64,000 nt of DNA from Narcine bancroftii (lineage: Eukaryota), in the NCBI RefSeq assembly GCF_036971445.1, contig NC_091471.1, positions 342,488,001 through 342,552,000 of the forward strand, written 5' to 3'. Shown here piece by piece: positions 7,398-58,922 of the stretch. The notes beneath the pieces are model-generated. The model worked only from the letters and a program-made list of their open reading frames with translations. It ran no database searches and was not told the DNA's origin. The translations under genes and the position numbers were made by a program. How positions within the stretch are numbered: the stretch's first letter is position 1; each line of letters begins with the position of its first letter.

Positions 7398-7789
7398 CTT
7401 CTTCTTTGGCTTGGCTTCGCGGACGAAGATTTATGGAGGGGGTAAATGTCCATGTCAGCTGCAGGCTCGTTTGTGGCTGACAAGTCCTATGCGGGACAGG
7501 CAGACACGGTTGCAGCGGTTGCAGGGGAAAATTGGTTGGTTGGGGTTGGGTGTTGGGTTTTTCCTCCTTTGCCTTTTGTCAGTGAGGTGGGCTCTGCGGT
7601 CTTCTTCAAAGGAGGTTGCTGCCCGCCAAACTGTGAGGCGCCAAGATGCACGGTTTGAGGCGATATCAGCCCACTGCTGGTGGTCAATGTGGCAGGCACC
7701 AAGAGATTTCTTTAGGCAGTCCTTGTACCTTTTCTTTGGTGCACCTCTGTCACGGTGGCCAGTGGAGAGCTCGCCATATAACACGATCA
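7398..7789 (-). mobile_element. Young RTE LINE, 5'-truncated, with 17-bp TSD
   Basis: ORF LYGELSTGHRDRGAPKKRYKD...CNRCNRVCLSRIGLVSHKRAC; (AAG) tail; TSD TGTATTATRATCACCCT at 7381-7397 and 7792-7808. Confidence 0.95.
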
Positions 7790-8389
7790 TGTGTATTATA
7801 ATCACCCTAATACATAGATAAATGGAGTTAAGCAGGAAAGTCTCCAGATGCCTGTATTGTGGTGCATTGCATCTATAGATAACTGCTTTGTTTTTATTTT
7901 TCTTTTATCACCTCACCTTTTCGTTATTTATATAATCTGTTTCAAAATGTTTCTGATGCCAGGGACATATATAAAATAATGACAGTAGGGCTTTTAAAAA
8001 AAATGTCATTGAAACAGGATTTCAGGATCCACTGGTGGTCCACAATGCCTCATAAGGTATTCCAATCCATTCATCTCACAGCGATGCAGAAGGCAAAGGT
8101 ACTAATGGCAAGAGCATGAGTGAAGAGCAGAGATTGGGTCCAGAGCAATTTAACGCAGTGACTATGCAAAGGAATTTCTCACCAGTGAAGAGAGGAGTGG
8201 ATTCAAGGTATTGCTGTGAAGAAACTAGATAAAGTGACACTCAAGACACTTTGCCAAATAATGTTGTCTCTTTACTCTAAAGAGAAGCTCAAAAATGTAA
8301 ATAATTATTGAATATATTCACTTAAAAAGCTCAAAGTTGTTAGCATTTTACTGTGTTACTCTAGAGCACTTTTCATTGCAAAAAATTCC

Positions 8390-9225
8390 ATCAGCACATT
8401 TTTCCCACTCCATCTTCTGCAGGGACCACTCCCTCCGTGACTCCAACATCCACTTATCCATTCTCACTAATTGCCCCTTGTAACTGCAGGAAGTGCTAGC
8501 TACACTTGCGCCCACACCTACTCCCTCACCAACATTCGGGGCCACAAAAAAGTCCTTCCAGGTGAAGCAACACTTCACTTGTTAATCTGCAGGAGTTATC
8601 AACAATATCCGGTGCTCCTGTTGTGGCCTCCTATACCTCAGAGAGACTGGGCGCAGACTGGGAGATTGTTTTTTTTGAGCACTTTCACTTTGTCCACTGC
8701 AAATGTTAGGACCTCCTGGTGGCCAACCATTTCAATTCCACACTAATATGTCTGTTCATGCCTTCATGCACTGCTTTACTCAGGCCACCGGCAAATTGGA
8801 GGGACAAACTGTGGGCAAACTCTAACTAGATAACATGAACATTAACTTCTCAAATATCTGTAAGACCCCTCCCCTGTCTCTCTCCTTCCCTCTGTCTCCT
8901 TTTCTCCAGCTTCCAATCCCAATTCCCTCTCCATTCAGAGACCTATCCCCTCCCCCATCACTTTCTGGCTATTTTCTCCTGCCCTCCCACCCATATCCAC
9001 CTATGACCTCTTACCTGTGGGCCTGTGCTCCTCTCCCTGCCCCTTTCCTCCTCCCATGCCCCCCCCCATTTTACTCAAAAACTTGCCTGCTTTTTGCTCA
9101 TTCCTTGACAAAGGGCTCAGGCCCGAAAAGTTGGCTACATATCTTTTAAAGAATGCTGAGCTTATCCAGCACTTCAGTGTATTGAACTACAATCACAACA
9201 TCTGCAGACTTTCTTCTTTAACATC
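8390..9225 (+). mobile_element. Penelope-like element 3' part (GIY-YIG endonuclease and terminal repeat)
   Basis: Decayed FQVKQHFTC-SAGVI...C..CGLLY..ETGRRLGD; pyrimidine tract; hammerhead-like motif at 9105-9135. Confidence 0.8.
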
Positions 9226-18662: not shown

Positions 18663-19339
18663 TCAACCTGATCTGGTGTAATGTGTGTTGTGTTCATGGT
18701 CATCACCCTGTCCTTTTCTCCTCTCCCTCTAAAATATCCTCCTGCTCCAGCTTCTCTTGATCTGCTCAGACTTGTAACATTCTGGGGACTTTGGAACAGG
18801 GGCCTCTCCGGATCGCCTTCAAAGATTAAGCAAAGATATTTTGCATTTGTAGGCAACATCCAAAGGACCTAAATGGAGATGCAGTAACATTATTTGCAAT
18901 AAGAATGAATACTGTAATGAAATTAAAGGAGACACCATGATCACAATGGAATATTGTTAGCTTTAGTCTTGGTCTTGAGATGATTCAGGCCTCTGTGGCC
19001 CCTCTGCCCATTGGGACGAGCAGGATCTATTCCACCTGATGTATTCTGCACTGGTATCTCCATCCTATCTCATGCTGAGTTAGCCTGGATGGAAGAGATG
19101 GCACACTTGAGTCACCTTTCCATTATCCTGTTGGACGTTAGACCCGTCTGTCAAGGTACAATGGTGCTGAGGGTGAAGTAGGTGGGAGTTGTGGATGGAG
19201 TAACAGTAGTATGCATGCCTTGATAAGTGTGTCAATGTAAGAAAACAATCTTTGTGGTGGTCTGCTGCTCACTTTGACAGACCTGAAATTTCTTAGAACA
19301 TTCTTCCATGCTGTGAAATGATGACCCCAACTATCTCCT

Positions 19340-19557
19340 TGTGGTGAATGTCTGCCAAGCTGCCTGTCTCCCCTCTGGCAAGCCTTGCTGTACTAACATT
19401 GGCTGTGCAATATCTCTACTGTTAAGGACACTCCCCTTGGGTATAACTGCGTATGCACCTATTGTCTTTCATTATTGTACCATCAGTTTCTGCTAATAAA
19501 AGCCATGATTATTGTTTGACCACATCGTCTTTTTCTACTTCATCAACTGGCACTTCA
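19340..19557 (+). repeat. 5' LTR
   Basis: TGTGGTGAA...CACTTCA; TATAA at 19443; AATAAA at 19495. Confidence 0.97.
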
Positions 19558-19572
19558 ATTTTATTAACAGAA

Positions 19573-20400
19573 ATGGATGCAGTCCTCAAGCCAGAGTGGC
19601 TGATAATCGACCCGTCTGTCCCGAGGGCCAGAGAAATTTTCAACCACTGGATTGCTTGTTTCAATTACTACATGGCACGAAACAACGTGGTTGATGAGGT
19701 GATACAGTGGGGCCACCTGAACTCTCTGCTGGGTGAGGTCCCTTTTGCCGTTACGCAAGGAGCTACCACTCTGGCTATAGCCCGGGAATGTCTGTCTGCT
19801 TACTATGTAGCACCACGGAATGTGGTGCTTGCTTGACGCCAGTTGTTGACTAGATGCCAGAAACCCAGGGAAAGTGATGCTGCCTATGCACTGGCCCTCG
19901 ACTCACTGGCAAACGAACATGATGTCAGGGCAGTCAATGTGCAACAACACCGCGACGCCTTGAATCTGGATTCTTTTGTCAACGGGATTGATTCCAGTTA
20001 CACCCGACAGAGGCTGCTGGAGACGGAGCCCCTAACCTACGACCGGGCAATCACTCTAGCCAAAACACTGAGAAGTGCCATGCGGTCCAGTGAAATGCTA
20101 GAAACCAAAATGGAAACATCCAGGAGTGCTGGAACCCCGAAGGAAAGAAAAGGGCAAACTCCTGAAAAATGCTACTTCTGTGATGAGAGCTGGCACCCCA
20201 GACAGAAGTGCCCAGCTCAATTTGCTACCTGCAGCTATTGTGGGAAACTCGGCCACATCGCTAAAGCGTGTAAGGCGAAAAATAATCCCACTGATAAGAA
20301 GAAGAAGAGAATCACCAAGAAAATGCATTCTGGAGCTGCAGGAATGGAAGACAACTGTGAAAAGGGGAATCTTCAGATGAACAGGCTGAATAGACTTTGA
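19573..20400 (+). pseudogene. Gypsy gag with premature stop at 19834-19836
   Basis: Starts MDAVLKPEWL; two CCHC knuckles, CYFCDESWHPRQKC and CSYCGKLGHIAKAC. Confidence 0.9.
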
Positions 20401-20479
20401 GTGACGGCAAGGTGAGATCCCCTGTGATAGCTCAATTGACTGTAAAGCTTGGGGGATGTTACGGATTGGAGCGGTCGAC

Positions 20480-23251
20480 TATGAAGGGGAAGGTGAATGG
20501 TGAGACTCTTGATTGCCTAATAGACTTGTGGAGTACTGACTGCTACATCCACAAGAGAGTTGCCAGAGCCTTAAATTTGCGGAGATATCCAGCGAACTGA
20601 AAGATATCGATGGCTTGTAGTGAACTTACAAAAACTGTATGGGACAACTGTAAAGTTACTTTAAATTTGCAGGGACATTGCCTGGCTGATGTGTGGCTCT
20701 TTATAATGCCAGAGCTCTGCGCCCCTGTGTTACTGGGGTTAGATATTCAATCTCAGATGAACAGTGTAGTGTTAAATTTCGATGGGCCACTACCCACACT
20801 TAGCACCCCCCGCACTAGTTACTGTGGTCTGTCCGCATTAAAGATCAAAGCTCCTTCCCTTTTCAGTGATTTATCCCGAGTGTCAGCCGATTGCCACGAA
20901 GAGCCGTTCTTACATCAAAGAGGATCGTGAGTTTATCAAAGCAGAGACCCAGAGACTGCTTAAAGAGGGAGCAATTGAAGCTAGTAAGAGTCCGTGGCGG
21001 GCCCAAGTGGTAGTCGTGAAAAATCACACTAAGAGACGACTGGCTATTGACTACAGCCAGACAATCAACTGTTACACGATCCTGGATGCCTACCCCCTGC
21101 CACGCATCAATGAAATGATTAATCAGATAGCGCAATACAAAGTGTACTCCACTATCGACCTCAAAGCAGCTTATCACCAAATCCCCATTAAGAAAAGGTA
21201 ATGGCCCTATACGGCTTTTGAGGCTGATGGGGGGGGTTTATACCAGTTTAAAAGGGTACCTTTTGGGATCACTAATGGTGTGTCCATGTTTCAGAGGGAA
21301 ATGGATAAGATTGTTAGGATGTATGAGTTACAGGGTACATTTCCCTATCTGGATAATGTCACTATCTGTGGGAAAACACAGGCTGAGCACGACAACAACT
21401 GAAAGAAATTTTTAGCAACAGCTAAAGAACTCAACCTTACATTTAACGAGGGCAAATGTGTGTTCAATGCGACAGAGCTACCCATTCTGGGCTACATTGT
21501 CTGCAAGGGTGAAATCCGCCCCGACCCAGAACGAATGGCCCCCCTCAAGAAGTTACAACCCCCAGACTCAGCAAAAGCCCTTAAAAGGTGTATGGGATTC
21601 GTTTCCTACTATTGCAAATGGGTTCTGGACTACGCCACGAAGGCACGCCCTCTGTTTGACACTAAATCTTTTCCTCTCTCTCTCTCTCTCTCCATTGGCC
21701 TTGAAGGCTTTCGAGAGAATTAAAGCTGATTTTGCCAAAGCTGCACTCCTGTCCATTGACGAGGATGACCCATTCCAAGTGGAAAATTATGCCTCAGATT
21801 GTGCCTTGGCACAAAAGGGCAGACCTGTGGCATTCTTCTCCCACACGTTACCTGGACCTGAACTTAAACATCATGCCTTTGAAAAAGAAGCCCAGGCTAT
21901 TATTGAAGCTGTTCGCTACTAGAGACACTTTCTAGCTGGCAGAAAATTTACTCTTGTCACTGATCAGAAATCTGTAGCCTACATGTTCAGTACTAAACAC
22001 AAAAGTAAAATCAAGAACAATAAGATGGCACGCTGGCAAATAGAACTCTCAACTTATAATTATGAGATCCAGTACAGACCGGACAGATTAAATGATCCCT
22101 CTGAAGCATTGTCACGATCTGCTGCTGGTGCTCAGCTGGGGGGGCTAAAAGAGATCCAGGAGTCACGAGGTTCTTCCATTACATAAGGGCTAAGAACCTT
22201 CCTTACTCTCTGGAAGAAGTCAGGAAACTGACTAAAAGCTGTCCTGTTTGTGCAGAATGCAAACCGTAATACTTCAAATCTCCGGAGGCCACTCTCATCA
22301 AGGCAACCTGACCTTTTGAGAGGATTAGCTTAGATTTTAAAGGACCGTTACCTTCCAACAACAAAAATGTATATTTCCTTACAGTAATTGACTAATATTC
22401 CAGGTTTCCCTTTACGATACCCTGCCCTGATGTCTCATCAACATCTGCCATTGAGTCACTTGACAGAAATTTCAGCATTTTTGGTTTTCCCAATTACATT
22501 CATATCGATAGGGGCTCAGCATTCATGACCGCTGAACTGCGGCGAGCCCTGCTACGGAAGGGGATTGCCACCAGCTGTACCATGAGCCTCAACCTGCAGG
22601 GCAATGGGTAGGTCGAAATGGCTAATGCTACAGTCTGGAAGACTGTTAATCTTGCTTTAAAAACACATGGTTACCCTGTTACCCGGTGGCTGGAGATGCT
22701 GCCTGAAGCGCTACATTCTATTCGGTCATTATTGTGTACTGCAACAAATCAAACACCTCATGAATGTATGTTTGCCTTTCCTAGGAAATCAGGAACTATG
22801 ATGGACTGGCCAGCCTGTTTATCTGAGCCTGGAACCGTGCTGCTGAAGAGTCATGCTCGGGCGCATAAAACAGACCCCTTAGTCCAACCAGTTCAGCTAC
22901 TGCATACCAACCCCAACTACGCTCATGTTAAATTCCCAGACGTGAGTACTGACACTGTACCCCTAATAGATCTGGCCTCGCCTGGTTCGCCCCTTCCTTA
23001 CACCCCTACTCAGAGTGAGCCTGAGAGATTGGGCTCACTCCCCCCAGCCTGTGACCCATAGTAAGCTTTCAGATGGCCATTCTGAGGCTCCACTGCCTCA
23101 CGCTGGCGATTCTGGAGCCGGTCCAGAAGTCAGTCCTTCCCACACTACACACCCAGGACCTGTACCAGTTCTCAAGTTTGCAAAGGAGCCACCTGTTTTG
23201 AGAAGAAGTACCAGAATTTGTAAACAACCTGATAGGCTGACATATTCATAA
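20480..23251 (+). pseudogene. Gypsy pol (protease, RT, RNase H, integrase) with multiple stops and frameshifts
   Basis: CLIDLWST (PR); SPWRAQVVVV, IDYSQTIN, LDAYPLPRI, STIDLKAAYHQI, PFGITN, YLDNV (RT); RPVAFFS, EKEAQAI, TDQKSV (RH); CPVC, LDFKGPL, DRGSAF (IN); terminal LRRSTR. Confidence 0.92.
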
Positions 23252-23406
23252 ACCATCTCATTATATTTTGATTGCTTGCTAGATACTGGCGTATTTTGGC
23301 TGTTAGAGTATTCTCAATGCCAAACATGGTATCCATGTATCGCTTGCTTCAGTCTTTCCTAGGAGCTGTCCTTTTGATTTTAACCCTTCTTCTGCCGGGG
23401 GGAGAC

Positions 23407-23623
23407 TGTGGTGAATGTCTGCCAAGCTGCCTGTCTCCACTCTGGCGAGCCTTGCTGTACTAACATTGGCTGTGCATTATCTCTATGTTAAGGACACCCC
23501 CCTTGGGTATAACTGTGTATGCACCTATTGTCTTTCATTATTGTACCATGAGTTTCTGCTAATAAAAGCCATGATTATTGTTTGACCACATCGTCTTTGT
23601 CTACTTCATCAACTGGCACTTCA
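23407..23623 (+). repeat. 3' LTR
   Basis: Direct repeat of 19340-19557, preceded by the polypurine tract GGGGGGAGA. Confidence 0.97.
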
Positions 23624-24205
23624 CTCCTACCAGGGTAGTTGACCACTGGCACTCAGGAGCCTCCAATTTTCTCCCCTCCCCATCGTGCAGAGGCTCACTC
23701 ATCTGTCTATTCTTAATTTACTTGTAATTCTTTGTCTCCTTCCGTAAATTGAAGGGCTCCATTTCCTGCATTGTGTGCGCTGCTGTTGGGTGTGTACTTT
23801 CAAGTGGCAATACCCTTCAGTAATTACTGAGCAGGCTGTGTTGACTAATACATTCAAATGAGCAAAATTTTATTAAAAATCTAGTAAATGTGTCTGGCCA
23901 CATCAAACCAAGCTGTGAAGGATCGCTGACAGGACACATTTTCTCTGTTGCTCTTCTCACAGATGTCGCCTGATCTGTTTAGTATTTCCAGCTATTTTAA
24001 ATTTTTTAGTTTCAATAGAGCCTGTCTCATCAGGGCAAGCTCGACTTTAGCACTCATTGCTGGGTGTGAACCACATGCAATTTCAAACGCTTTTTTTTTG
24101 TGGAGCATCCAATAAGAGCAAAATATCTAAAGGAAGTCTCATTACTGTGCACCCAAAACAGAATGTTTTTTATTTTATTTCAAGTTTCTAGCCTTTGCCA
24201 TGTTT

Positions 24206-26620: not shown

Positions 26621-27524
26621 TTAAATCTCATTCATGGGTTGGGTGTGTCTGGCCTAAGCTTTCTCCAAGTGCATATGTAATTATAACTTAAACAATATAA
26701 AACAATAAGCTACACCATTCTCATGCTTGCTTTCCTGTTGACATGTTTCCTGATCATCTGATCAATTCCTCCACCCCAATTACCTAATCAATATCAGTCT
26801 GACCGAGAACACCGATTTCCACAGATGCTGGTGATGAACATGCAATTGCTAGCAGAAAAATTGACATGAATGCAGAAAGTTTTGAGTAATGGTGTAAACA
26901 TTATGTGGATGTTACATTATGCCTCATATCAAATGAACCTTGTATATTGTATGCATCCATCTTATAGTTCACACATCTTCGATTGAATGAATGCACATTC
27001 AGTTCAGTCTCTGTCATTCACATCTATCTTCACAGAATACACTGCAGAAGAATTTTGTGCTGGATCATCTTGTTTATCTCTGGTTCAGCTCTGAAAAAGC
27101 CTTAAGGGAATGTTCACTGACATTTTGATACTTAATTTTCAGTTGTGTTTTATTAGCCAACTAATTCATTTGCTTTTTATTTAATTGATGAAAACCTTCA
27201 AAGAACATAGTCCCCAGTTTTCTGCTATCTTCCCCTGAAGGTATTGACTCATTCCTCTTCTATCTCCTTTGCAAGATAATGCTTACTAGCAGTGATACAT
27301 TCCCAGTAGGCATTTGAATCTATTCTGTATTCAATGGAATGCATTGTCGGGAGCAACAGAAAACATGGAAGTTTTATTTTAACGGTGGCCTTGCTTGGTT
27401 ACATTTAAGACAATTATAATTCCAGCTCTGATCACAATTTTTTAAAAAAGAAATTTGGAGCAGAAACAGTCCACTCACAGCTGTCCTACCATTTCAGTAC
27501 AATTATGGTGAATCTACCAGAAGT

Positions 27525-27999
27525 AGAGGTCGACAGCATCGAGTCCACGCTGCTGAAGATCCAGCTGCGCTGGATGGGTCACGTCTCCAGAATGGAGGAC
27601 CATCGCCTTCCCAAGATCCTGTTATATGGCGAGCTCTCCACTGGCCACTGTGACAGAGGTGCACCAAAGAAAAGGTACAAGGACTGCCTAAAGAAATCTC
27701 TTGGTGCCTGCCACATTGACCACCGCCAGTGGGCTGATAACGCCTCAAACCGTGCATCTTGGCGCCTCACAGTTTGGCGGGCAGCAACCTCCTTTGAAGA
27801 AGACCGCAGAGCCCACCTCACGAACAAAAGGCAAAGGAGGAAAAACCCAACACCCAACCAACCAATTTTCCCTTGCAACCGCTGCAATCGTGTCTGCCTG
27901 TCCCGCATCGGACTTGTCAGCCACAAACGAGCCTGCAGCTGACGTGGACTTTTTACCCCCTCCATAAATCTTCGTCCGCGAAGCCAAGCCAAAGAGAAG
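27525..27999 (+). mobile_element. Young RTE LINE, 5'-truncated
   Basis: Open C-terminal ORF to 27942; tail; possible 9-bp TSD ACCAGARGT (27516 and 28000). Confidence 0.95.
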
Positions 28000-30348: not shown

Positions 30349-30724
30349 CAGTGGTTCCCAACCTTTTACTTTCCACTCACATACCACTTTAAATAGTCCC
30401 AATGCCATAAGTGTTCTGTGATTAATAAGGGATTGCTTAAGGTGGTATGTGGGTGAAAAGAAAAAGTTTGAAAACCCCTGTTTTAATCATTCCAAATTGA
30501 CTCGTTATGTGCACGGTTTCATAACTCCAAAGGAAATGGGCCAATGACAATTTTTCTCAAGCAAAATATTTCAGTAATAATTGGGTCTAGAGCAGTGATT
30601 CTCAACCTTCCCTTCCCACTCACATACCACCTTAAGCAATCCCTTACTAATCACAGAACAACTTATGGCATAGGGATTACTTAAAGTGGTATGTGAGTGG
30701 TAAGTAAAAGGTTGGGAACTACTG
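30349..30724. mobile_element. Composite hAT MITE, copy 1 (two inverted ~132-bp units plus spacer)
   Basis: TIRs CAGTGGTTCCCAACCTTTT and AAAAGGTTGGGAACTACTG; flanking (TG)TGCTAC repeat; 30349-30480 is the near reverse complement of 30592-30724. Confidence 0.9.
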
Positions 30725-36584: not shown

Positions 36585-36719
36585 TATAGGGAGAGGTGTG
36601 GCACAGCATATTATCTCAAATATACTTATTACTATTTCAGCATGCATTGTTTCACAAAACGTTTCTACAATACAACTAGAGACAATTGTTGGGTCTCCTT
36701 TGGGTTAATTGGAGGCTAA

Positions 36720-37580
36720 TAACACAGGAGCACCTCAAGGATGTGTGCTTAGCCCACTGCTCTACTCTGTCCACACCTACGTCTGTGTAGCCAGGCACAA
36801 TTCATATGCCATCTACCAATCTGCTGATAACACCATGGTTGTCGGCAGAGTCACAGACGAGGAAGCGTACAGGAGGGAGATAGATCAGCTAAATGAGTGG
36901 AGTCACAACAACAACCCTGCGGTCAATGTCAGTAAAACCAAGGAGATGATTGTGGACTTCAGGAGGAAATCAAGAAAACACGAACTACTCCTCGTCGAGG
37001 GGTCAGCTCCGGGGAGGGTCAAGAACATCAAATTCCTGGGTGTCAGCATCTCTGAGGAACTCTCCTGGAGCCTTGATGTTGATGCAATCACAAGGAAGGC
37101 TCATCAACTGCTATACGTTGTAAGGAGTTTGAGGAGATTTGGTATGTCACCGAAGACTCTCAGAAACTTCTGTAGGTGTACAGTGGAGAGCATTCTGGCT
37201 GGTTGTATCACTGTCTGCCAAAACTCGGGACAAGAAAAAAACTCGAGAGAGTTGTTAACTAGGCCTGTGACATCGTGGGCACCCATCTTCATTCCATTGA
37301 AGATACTCACCAGAAGCAGCGACTTAAGAAAGCAGCTTCCATCTGCCGCCTCTCCATTCCATTGCCTTCTTCACTCTGCTACCATTAGGGAAAAAGGTAC
37401 AAGAATCTGAGAACAAACACTCGGCCATCAGATTCCTGAATGATCAATGGCCACAGACACAATCTTTTTCTTTTACTATTTTAATTTATTTTGTAAGATG
37501 CTTTATATAAATGTTTGCACTGCAATACGACAGTGAAAATAATTTCATGACATTCTCGTGACAATAAATTCTGATTCTAA
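36720..37580 (+). mobile_element. Rex1/Babar-like LINE 3' half
   Basis: NTGAPQGCVLSPLLYS, ADNT, NVSKTKEMIVDFRR, KFLGV; tail GACAATAAATTCTGATTCT. Confidence 0.9.
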
Positions 37581-57120: not shown

Positions 57121-58152
57121 ATGTTTGGATCGCTCTCAATGAGAAAGAGGGAAAGCTTTGTAATGTACATTTTCTCTAAGAAGGGAAAGAGGAATATTAA
57201 ATTCATTGCATCCTTGTCCATTTAACATTTGTAATAATACAGTTCTTTCTTCCTTCTTTCAGTTCAGTGCATTCTGCTTGGCTTCCCACATTAGAAAGTA
57301 TTTGCCCCTAATCTAATAAGCCTGAGATGGATCAGCATGACCCACCTTTACAAATTGCTGCTCTTTCAGCTTCCCTCTATCTCTAATTCTGATCTGCATT
57401 TCTAATCTATCAATCTTCTCCACAGGAGGTGGGTAGCTTGAAGCCTCAAAATTCATCAATATCCCCATGGAATTAATCAGATTTCCAGGGCCACAAGTGA
57501 AATCTTGATATACAACACAAATGTTAGCCATTAAATTACACTCACACAGCGAGAGCAAAGTGACTCCTGCTAGCTGAACTGTCAAGTATTCTTCAGGAAG
57601 CGCAGTGGGAGCATTCCTCTGAATAGTGATGACTAGGTACATTAATGACCATCTCTTCAATCTATGCTACTGATGCACAGTGAAGCTGTCATGTAGCAGC
57701 ATCTTAAATCAATAACTGACAGCACAGCAATTACAAATTCTTCGAAGATTATTATCAAGACAACTTTGATCTTAATTACCTTTACTGCTTGTTCCAGCTC
57801 GTGTTGGTGGTGAAATAAAGGTGAAAGGTGGGCACTTTTAATTCCCTCTGTTTTTTTATTCCAGATTCCCCACCCCAACCATCCATCTCAGTTTGCATAG
57901 GCTCCAAGAAGAATTGACTCCTTGCTTGGGGAACATGTTCCACAGAACATGCCCCCCCCCCCCCACCAAATCTAGAGGCCTGAACTACTGACTTAATACT
58001 GAAAATGAATCAAAGGCATTTCTGAACAGCCATTCAGAATTCTTCTCAGAACAACACCATAGTTCATTCAAACTATGCAATATCTCAATTTATTACAAAA
58101 TATGCATGGTTTGAGAATAACTATTTGTTTAACTAGTATTGAGTAACCATTT

Positions 58153-58922
58153 CATCAGATGCAAGGATCGACAATGAGATAGACAACAGACTCGCCAAGG
58201 CAAATAGCGCCTTTGGAAGACTACACAAAAGAGTCTGGAAAAACAACCAACTGAAAAACCTCACAAAGATAAGCGTATACAGAGCCGTTGTCATACCCAC
58301 ACTCCTGTTCGGCTCCGAATCATGGGTCCTCTACCGGCACCACCTACGGCTCCTAGAACGCTTCCACCAGCGTTGTCTCCGCTCCATCCTCAACATCCAT
58401 TGGAGCGCTCACACCCCTAACGTCGAGGTACTCGAGATGGCAGAGGTCGACAGCATCGAGTCCACGCTGCTGAAGATCCAGCTGCGCTGGATGGGTCACG
58501 TCTCCAGAATGGAGGACCATCGCCTTCCCAAGATCGTATTATATGGCGAGCTCTCCACTGGCCACCGTGACAGAGGTGCACCAAAGAAAAGGTACAAGGA
58601 CTGCCTAAAGAAATCTCTTGGTGCCTGCCACATTGACCACCGCCAGTGGGCTGATAACGCCTCAAACCGTGCATCTTGGCGCCTCACAGTTTGGCGGGCA
58701 GCAGCCTCCTTTGAAGAAGACCGCAGAGCCCACCTCACTGACAAAAGGCAAAGGAGGAAAAACCTAACACCCAACCCCAACCAACCAATTTTCCCTTGCA
58801 ACCGCTGCAATCGTGTCTGCCTGTCCCGCATCGGACTGGTCAGCCACAAACGAGCCTGCAGATGACGTGGACTTTTTTACCCCCTCCATAAATCTTCGTC
58901 CGCGAAGCCAAGCCAAAGAAAG
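58153..58922 (+). mobile_element. Young RTE LINE, longest copy, open reading frame 58146-58865
   Basis: TISSDARIDNEIDNRLAKANSAFGRL...CNRC...HKRAC with no stops; perfect 15-bp TSD ATTGAGTAACCATTT (58138-58152 and 58923-58937). Confidence 0.97.

Follow-up and report, generated by a model that had tools for sequence, protein, structure and literature searches.

Likely self-priming from an LTR segment in a Gypsy clade outside the sampled Tf1/sushi elements

Described self-priming systems and the Gypsy element of the window

In the published accounts that we found, self-priming of Gypsy retrotransposons is tied to the Tf1/sushi chromoviruses. Tf1, Tf2, Tj1 and the Tf1/sushi elements at large, which provide the precedent for Tf1-type self-priming, combine the gene order of Gypsy elements with the absence of a tRNA site; a stretch of the LTR is complementary to the site just behind the 5′ LTR, and an extra short helix stands beside the central duplex, as described in bioRxiv 10.1101/2022.12.06.519325, PMC4600332 and PMC5341516. 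The clade reported here shares these properties but differs from Tf1/sushi in lacking a chromodomain or SH3_Tf2-1 in the 120 homologs listed, in forming a separate RT clade, and in a predicted primer that ends in a poly(A) hexamer and sits one base from the LTR. Moreover, the Tf1 self-primer is the extreme 5′ end of the mRNA, whereas the arm of the window family is predicted from TATA spacing to lie ~16 nt downstream of the start, and in place of the three-duplex pretzel of Tf1 there is support for one extra helix.

Plant Tcn1 chromoviruses and TAR (Houba/Osr-1) Copia elements have also been predicted to self-prime, the criterion being at least 10 complementary bases starting 0–5 bp after the 5′ LTR (PMC6317226). 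Our clade has such a stretch as well but belongs to other lineages and hosts, Tcn1 grouping with Tf1/sushi and TAR being Copia. Dictyostelid Skipper elements resemble the clade in being Gypsy elements with no TGG and a pyrimidine-rich site replacing the tRNA PBS, but they are chromoviruses, and no complementary left-LTR segment is reported in their description (PMC5006619). For metazoans, the non-chromovirus Gypsy clades Cigr-1, Mag A/B/C and MolGy are listed in PMC6238403, from whose main text the words PBS and primer are absent; no mention of Cigr, Tor or PBS was found in PMC2774666.

The window is the 64,000-nucleotide stretch of Narcine bancroftii DNA that was analysed. A decayed Gypsy LTR retrotransposon of 4.28 kb occupies its positions 19340–23623, with the following features.

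19335–19339, + strand: 5′ target-site duplication, CTCCT; identical five bases at 23624–23628
19340–19557, + strand: 5′ LTR, 218 bp, TG...CA; direct repeat with 23407–23623 (210/217 identical)
19442–19446, + strand: TATAA box, from sequence; putative function from core-promoter spacing
19487–19501, + strand: LTR arm, candidate self-primer; 14/15 complementary to 19559–19573, covarying in 29 families
19495–19500, + strand: poly(A) hexamer AATAAA inside the arm, from sequence; predicted primer 3′ end at 19501
19502–19505, + strand: GCCA directly past the arm, marking the predicted cut and providing the 5′ strand of a second helix, from family conservation and fold
19558, + strand: lone unpaired base between LTR end and primer site; CA+A in 28 of 29 families, CA+G in one
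19559–19573, + strand: primer-binding-site position, complementary to the arm, no TGG; from sequence, family copies and covariation
19576–20400, + strand: gag, two CCHC-type knuckles, one in-frame stop; weak PF00098 match, clade-like N-terminus, tblastn
20463–22992, + strand: pol, with protease, RT, RNase H and integrase, without chromodomain; Pfam on the window and other natural copies
23397–23406, + strand: polypurine tract preceding the 3′ LTR, from sequence
23407–23623, + strand: 3′ LTR, with second copy of arm and poly(A) hexamer and no downstream pairing partner; direct repeat
23624–23628, + strand: 3′ target-site duplication, CTCCT, equal to 19335–19339

The two TG...CA LTRs with their target duplication, the order gag-protease-RT-RNase H-integrase and an RT closest to Ty3 among solved structures identify the element as Ty3/Gypsy; the best PDB match of the RT is 4ol8_A (E 2e-13), followed by Ty3-G Gag-Pol 7q5b_A (E 2e-12). 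The LTR limits agree with the 5′ LTR end at 19557 given in the initial annotation, and the alignment of 30 genomic copies of the family begins at the same first LTR base. In the window copy gag starts 2 nt past the paired site, pol is broken by stops and frame changes, and gag-pol is recovered as five tblastn pieces in changing frames with 9 stops; this copy is dead. Its family has at least 532 exact LTR/primer-site junctions in its own 3.3-Gb genome. Two full LTRs, 93–98% identical, are found in 12 of the 20 copies fetched at length, 10 of these 12 having a similar polypurine tract, and no open frame in the 20 exceeds 376 codons. Elsewhere in the window, an element of ~376 bp with long terminal inverted repeats (30349–30724) is MITE-like, and 3′ fragments of two kinds of elements lie at 7455–7904, 27409–27942 and 58143–58865, and at 1279–1944 and 36709–37410; we take both kinds to be LINE-like from their motifs.

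An integrase query retrieved 957 longer proteins at E ≤ 1e-30, 120 of which were listed. The named hosts among these 120 matches are rays, catsharks, a nematode, an anemone, Hydra, a crinoid and an aphid; corals are represented by cluster members. As in the initial annotation, no chromodomain is found: PF00385 and PF24626, that is, a chromodomain or an SH3_Tf2-1 domain, are found in 0 of the 120 homologs listed and are missing from natural copy P0003. In the comparison set, PF00385 is present in 38 of 65 sushi-type proteins. A quick, unrooted RT tree of 73 rows, which includes no named Tf1, Mag or Cigr-1 reference, puts 46 clade rows including the window on one side of a long branch (SH-aLRT 100) and apart from 20 sushi-type rows (95); its other rows are six integrase-first rows (99), which we take to be Gmr1-like, and one that is presumably CsRn1-like. 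Because the tree separates clade rows from sushi-type rows, the clade is not nested in the sampled Tf1/sushi elements; it may be sister to Tf1/sushi or of independent origin, both being compatible with the unrooted topology.

The same genome contains decayed remnants of sushi-type chromoviruses with chromodomain-like C-termini (L142:1390-3136, minus strand; L146:1255-1884, minus strand; L169) and an abundant integrase-before-RT family matching PF24626 SH3_Tf2-1 (L143–L144, L147–L151, L153–L163), presumably Gmr1-like. Since this family scores with PF24626, the domain is not a marker of chromoviruses alone. PF24626 matches from the genome had been tried as chromovirus references; they are mostly integrase-before-RT elements and were kept as a separate group.

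Complementarity between the LTR arm and the primer site

The sequence after the 5′ LTR starts ATTTT and, as initially reported, has no TGG. Positions 19559–19579 match the reverse complement of 19481–19501 at 18 of 21 positions, with a 14/15 core (19487–19501 with 19559–19573) and a G-U pair at 19486/19574; the arm had further been described as aimed at the U5 edge from 1 nt away, and a single unpaired base, 19558, lies between LTR end and site. All of these observations held on re-examination. The sole core mismatch of the window copy is a C·A at 19493/19567. None of 5000 dinucleotide shuffles of the LTR reached 14/15, the best being 13 (in 4 shuffles), and the 14 matched core pairs have pair probabilities of 0.88–1.0. 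Taken as a whole, the 181-nt region folds with ordinary stability (z −0.82); what stands out is where the helix lies.

An arm is conserved, but the length of 21 nt first given to it did not stand, the conserved part being 12–17 nt long and ending at an AAA/GCC boundary. The 21-nt extension was rejected as a family feature, its outer CATC/GATG pairs being private to the window copy. These pairs rest on C19484, which occurs in 1 of 30 copies (the window; G in 28, T in 1), and the family feature is therefore the 15-nt core. This core is perfect (15/15) in 19 of the 30 copies, 28 of which have G at 19567, and none of the other 11 carries a compensating change, which is what decay following insertion would produce. 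Across the 532 exact junctions, base 19565 is T in 494, G in 35, A in 2 and C in 1, and in 28 inspected copies with G the facing arm base is unchanged. This is an excess of a transversion (window 19565, own-genome copies L170–L199); some of the G copies lie close together on contig C1, and no clear linked marker was found for the G, one column reaching p 0.005.

Relatives were collected with an alignment of the Gag N-terminus, which gave 80 metagenome loci, and a polyprotein alignment, which gave 6 MAG loci; 80 of the 86 were analysed, six being without gag start or omitted. The metagenome and MAG contigs are tied to the proteins of named hosts solely via the RT tree. Elements of the clade are 4.0–4.5 kb long, and Gag begins 14–53 nt after the start of the primer site. 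In size, single ORF and CCHC knuckles they resemble Cigr-1 and Mag, and we take Cigr-1 as a candidate name only. Six loci (L136–L141) are eukaryotic Gypsy elements of the clade on contigs binned as bacterial MAGs, most likely host DNA carried into bacterial bins. No relatives were found in the viral contigs scanned.

Perfect inverted repeats of at least 11 bp are present near the gag start in 46 of 75 loci (the window, one own-genome copy and 73 others with 110 nt or more of upstream sequence) and in 0 of 71 coding-region controls, whose maximum is 9. Clustering of 74 loci (100-nt cut-off) and the own-genome copy at 78% DNA identity yielded 34 families, each represented by its best-scoring locus. 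In 29 of them the arm pairs in the same register, from the second base after the CA of the LTR, with letters that differ between families, a loop of 24–72 nt between arm and site, and no TGG at the junction (0/29). The pairing starts at LTR end + 2 in 11 of 12 two-LTR loci, 7 of which have a perfect target duplication; the LTR ends of these loci were taken from the 3′ LTR copy via repeat alignment and trimmed to CA. The signature is absent in 5 of the 34 families: L117, L137 (junction not contained), L083, L063 and L092. In L083 the 5′ LTR seemingly lacks its 3′ half together with part of the primer site (L083:4901-4992, 8578-8780), while arm, GCC and hairpin persist in the 3′ LTR, and 6 nt left ahead of gag are complementary to the arm.

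At the variable positions 7–13, pairing holds in 192 of 203 cells, whereas 10,000 permutations average 100 and never exceed 130. As the arms had been picked as best matches, the control was repeated with a free search per LTR, in which 27 of 29 own pairs but 8 of 812 foreign pairs reach 12–13/13. A covariation alignment of 28 pairing families and the window (L115 omitted) has 15 pairs, 14 of them with double changes; 95.4% of its 435 cells are paired, 97 by double changes and 3 by G-U, and sliding it by one base lowers pairing to ~46%. None of 500 shuffles scores as high, although such counts are not probabilities, because each family is represented by its best locus and the families are related. 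Covariation between LTR arm and post-LTR site is thus clearly positive in 29 families, with double changes on both sides.

The initial annotation had the candidate primer end at the poly(A) signal, and in 24 of the 29 families the arm does end in or beside AATAAA or ATTAAA. Its last six bases are AATAAA in 11 families, ATTAAA in 11, a hexamer shifted by one base in 2 and non-canonical in 5. Pairing is kept apart from the hexamer, since non-canonical arms still pair, namely those of L093, which ends TGAAGA and keeps 15 bp, and L067, which ends TCAAAA. The arm is followed by GCC in 22 of 29 families and by ACC in 5. In the window, GCCA (19502–19505) forms a second short helix with TGGC (19548–19551), and across families a helix directly after the arm averages 4.2 bp, compared with 2.8 in shuffles (0/300 shuffle sets as high). 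No third helix common to the families appears in single folds.

Predicted priming route and its alternatives

Core-promoter spacing places the start of transcription relative to the TATA box. Because TATAA lies at 19442–19446, a canonical start is predicted near 19471, where an initiator-like TTCATT is located 29 nt downstream of TATAA (A19471). The arm had been said to begin close to the expected transcript start: TATAA is indeed upstream of it, but the predicted start precedes the core by ~16 nt instead of coinciding with its edge. No TATA position is conserved across families, and a fitting TATA distance is found in the window family only. The 60 nt upstream of the arm are A-poor (16–26% A per 10-nt bin), and an A-poor stretch between TATA and AATAAA has been described in PMC3601003.

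We are confident, short of certainty, that the primer site of the clade pairs with its own 12–17 nt LTR arm and not with a tRNA, and that the elements likely self-prime after a predicted cut at AAA/GCC. Transcription would start upstream of the arm, near 19471 in the window, and in the nascent RNA the arm would fold back and pair with the primer site. This would mask the 5′ poly(A) signal but not the 3′ copy, because the partner strand exists only behind the 5′ LTR. Cleavage by the element's own RNase H is predicted between 19501, the last paired A, and 19502, a step that has been shown for Tf1. RT would then extend the new 3′-OH through the spacer base and U5 back to GCC, and the first strand transfer would use as its repeat the ~15–25 nt from GCC to the poly(A) site. 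When the primer is copied during plus-strand synthesis, the arm sequence would replace that of the primer site. Such rewriting would explain why almost every change is a double Watson-Crick one; the scarcity of G-U pairs also fits a site rewritten from its primer, and a fixed register is what a primer needs. The occurrence of G at 19565 with an unchanged arm (35 of 532 junctions; 28 copies inspected) is not predicted by a strict rewrite-from-primer model and counts against it. In Tf1, the self-primer is reportedly not removed. The acidic residues of RNase H are kept in the intact relatives aligned, a conservation that does not by itself show activity.

In a partial host tRNA set (34 sequences, 16 anticodons; one mis-called tRNA-Glu record had a long intron and its matches were ignored), the best match to the window is 7 nt at offset 14, and no host tRNA of this set explains the site across families. 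With the same partial set, the constant anticodon-arm site of the half-tRNA type (Bianca, Osser) is not seen, the site letters varying across the 29 families. Priming by half of tRNA-Ile has been described in plants, for Copia Bianca, in PMC6317226. Correspondingly, the 5′ half of tRNA-Ile(AAU) could prime here, the LTR match being secondary; host tRNA-Ile(AAU) genes share 9 nt with the arm of the window family, and the anticodon loop pairs with 19561–19569 in copies with G at 19567. This pairing is, however, weaker than that of the arm (9 bp, −11.2 kcal/mol, against 15 bp, −17.6, in copy L039), two bases out of register (offset of 3 nt, against 1 in all families) and absent from the other 28 families, which have different primer-site letters. 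Furthermore, copying of inosine is expected to give C, whereas 35 junctions have G and 1 has C at the base that faces the wobble position. We therefore rejected half-tRNA-Ile priming as highly improbable. Three matches to the tRNA-Ile(AAU) pattern (L052–L054, G000:C11:190433033-190435957) lie on the same strand within 3 kb.

Three further explanations concern the helix itself. It might serve only to hide the 5′ poly(A) signal, some other primer being used, which would account for the AATAAA or ATTAAA at or beside the end of the arm in 24 of 29 families; where retroviruses have the signal in R, the 5′ copy needs to be suppressed, in HIV-1 partly via a stem-loop (PMC12789967). Yet occlusion requires neither a register fixed one base from the LTR end (29/29) nor so few G-U pairs (3 cells, as opposed to 97 with double changes), L093 holds its 15 bp without a canonical hexamer, and the element would be left without a primer, so that we regard occlusion alone as quite unlikely. 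It is also unlikely that the arm copy in the 3′ LTR is the one that primes, with the hexamer in U3, transcription beginning at GCC and the primer being cut from the 3′ end either of the same RNA or of a co-packaged one. The constant GCC or ACC past the hexamer could be such a start site, other families have no conserved TATA to fix the start, and retroviruses with the signal only in U3 exist (PMC12789967). However, in the window family the 60 nt from TATAA to GCC are double the usual spacing, and the initiator-like site follows TATAA by 29 nt; the A-poor 60 nt upstream of the arm match the TATA-to-AATAAA pattern (PMC3601003); and cutting the 3′ copy would remove the R of that same RNA. Finally, chance complementarity of AT-rich sequence might be suggested by the low complexity of the first six pairs and by a whole-region fold no better than shuffles (z −0.82). 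It is refuted by the inverted-repeat controls, the permutations, the free search and the covariation alignment, with 0/5000 shuffles reaching 14/15 and covariation at the variable positions of 29 families, and its probability is negligible.

Our best reading is that the element is likely a Tf1-like self-priming retrotransposon outside the Tf1/sushi group, with a duplex that would mask the 5′ poly(A) signal as well; cleavage, priming and start site are inferred. The candidate self-priming put forward in the initial annotation accordingly gains support from covariation, the separate RT clade, the missing chromodomain and the lack of a fitting tRNA in the set scanned.

Novelty and implications

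Self-priming itself is already known; its signature is found here in a clade with neither the chromodomain nor the RT nesting of Tf1/sushi, most likely as a Tf1-like mode of priming. No description of self-priming in a chromodomain-less animal Gypsy clade was found in the openly accessible literature searched, and the motifs of the clade were not found in its main texts or in the supplements searched, including those of PMC6238403 and PMC8556966.

Named members of the lineage, among the matches listed, come from cnidarians, a nematode, an aphid, a crinoid and cartilaginous fish. It is possible, although we lean slightly the other way, that a large and old lineage of animal Gypsy elements evolved tRNA-free priming independently of Tf1/sushi, using its own poly(A) signal as the primer 3′ end, such that one duplex both suppresses 5′ polyadenylation and defines the RNase H cut at a conserved AAA/GCC step. 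Through the overlap of arm and hexamer, a short LTR would have an economical way of keeping its transcript from ending at the 5′ copy, and the fixed register yields an exact predicted cut site. Such elements would be overlooked or wrongly scored by annotation software that requires a tRNA match. If self-priming holds for this widespread, chromodomain-less animal clade, 3′ tRNA fragments would not be able to control its elements, and tRNA-free priming would be commoner than assumed, probably with more than one origin.
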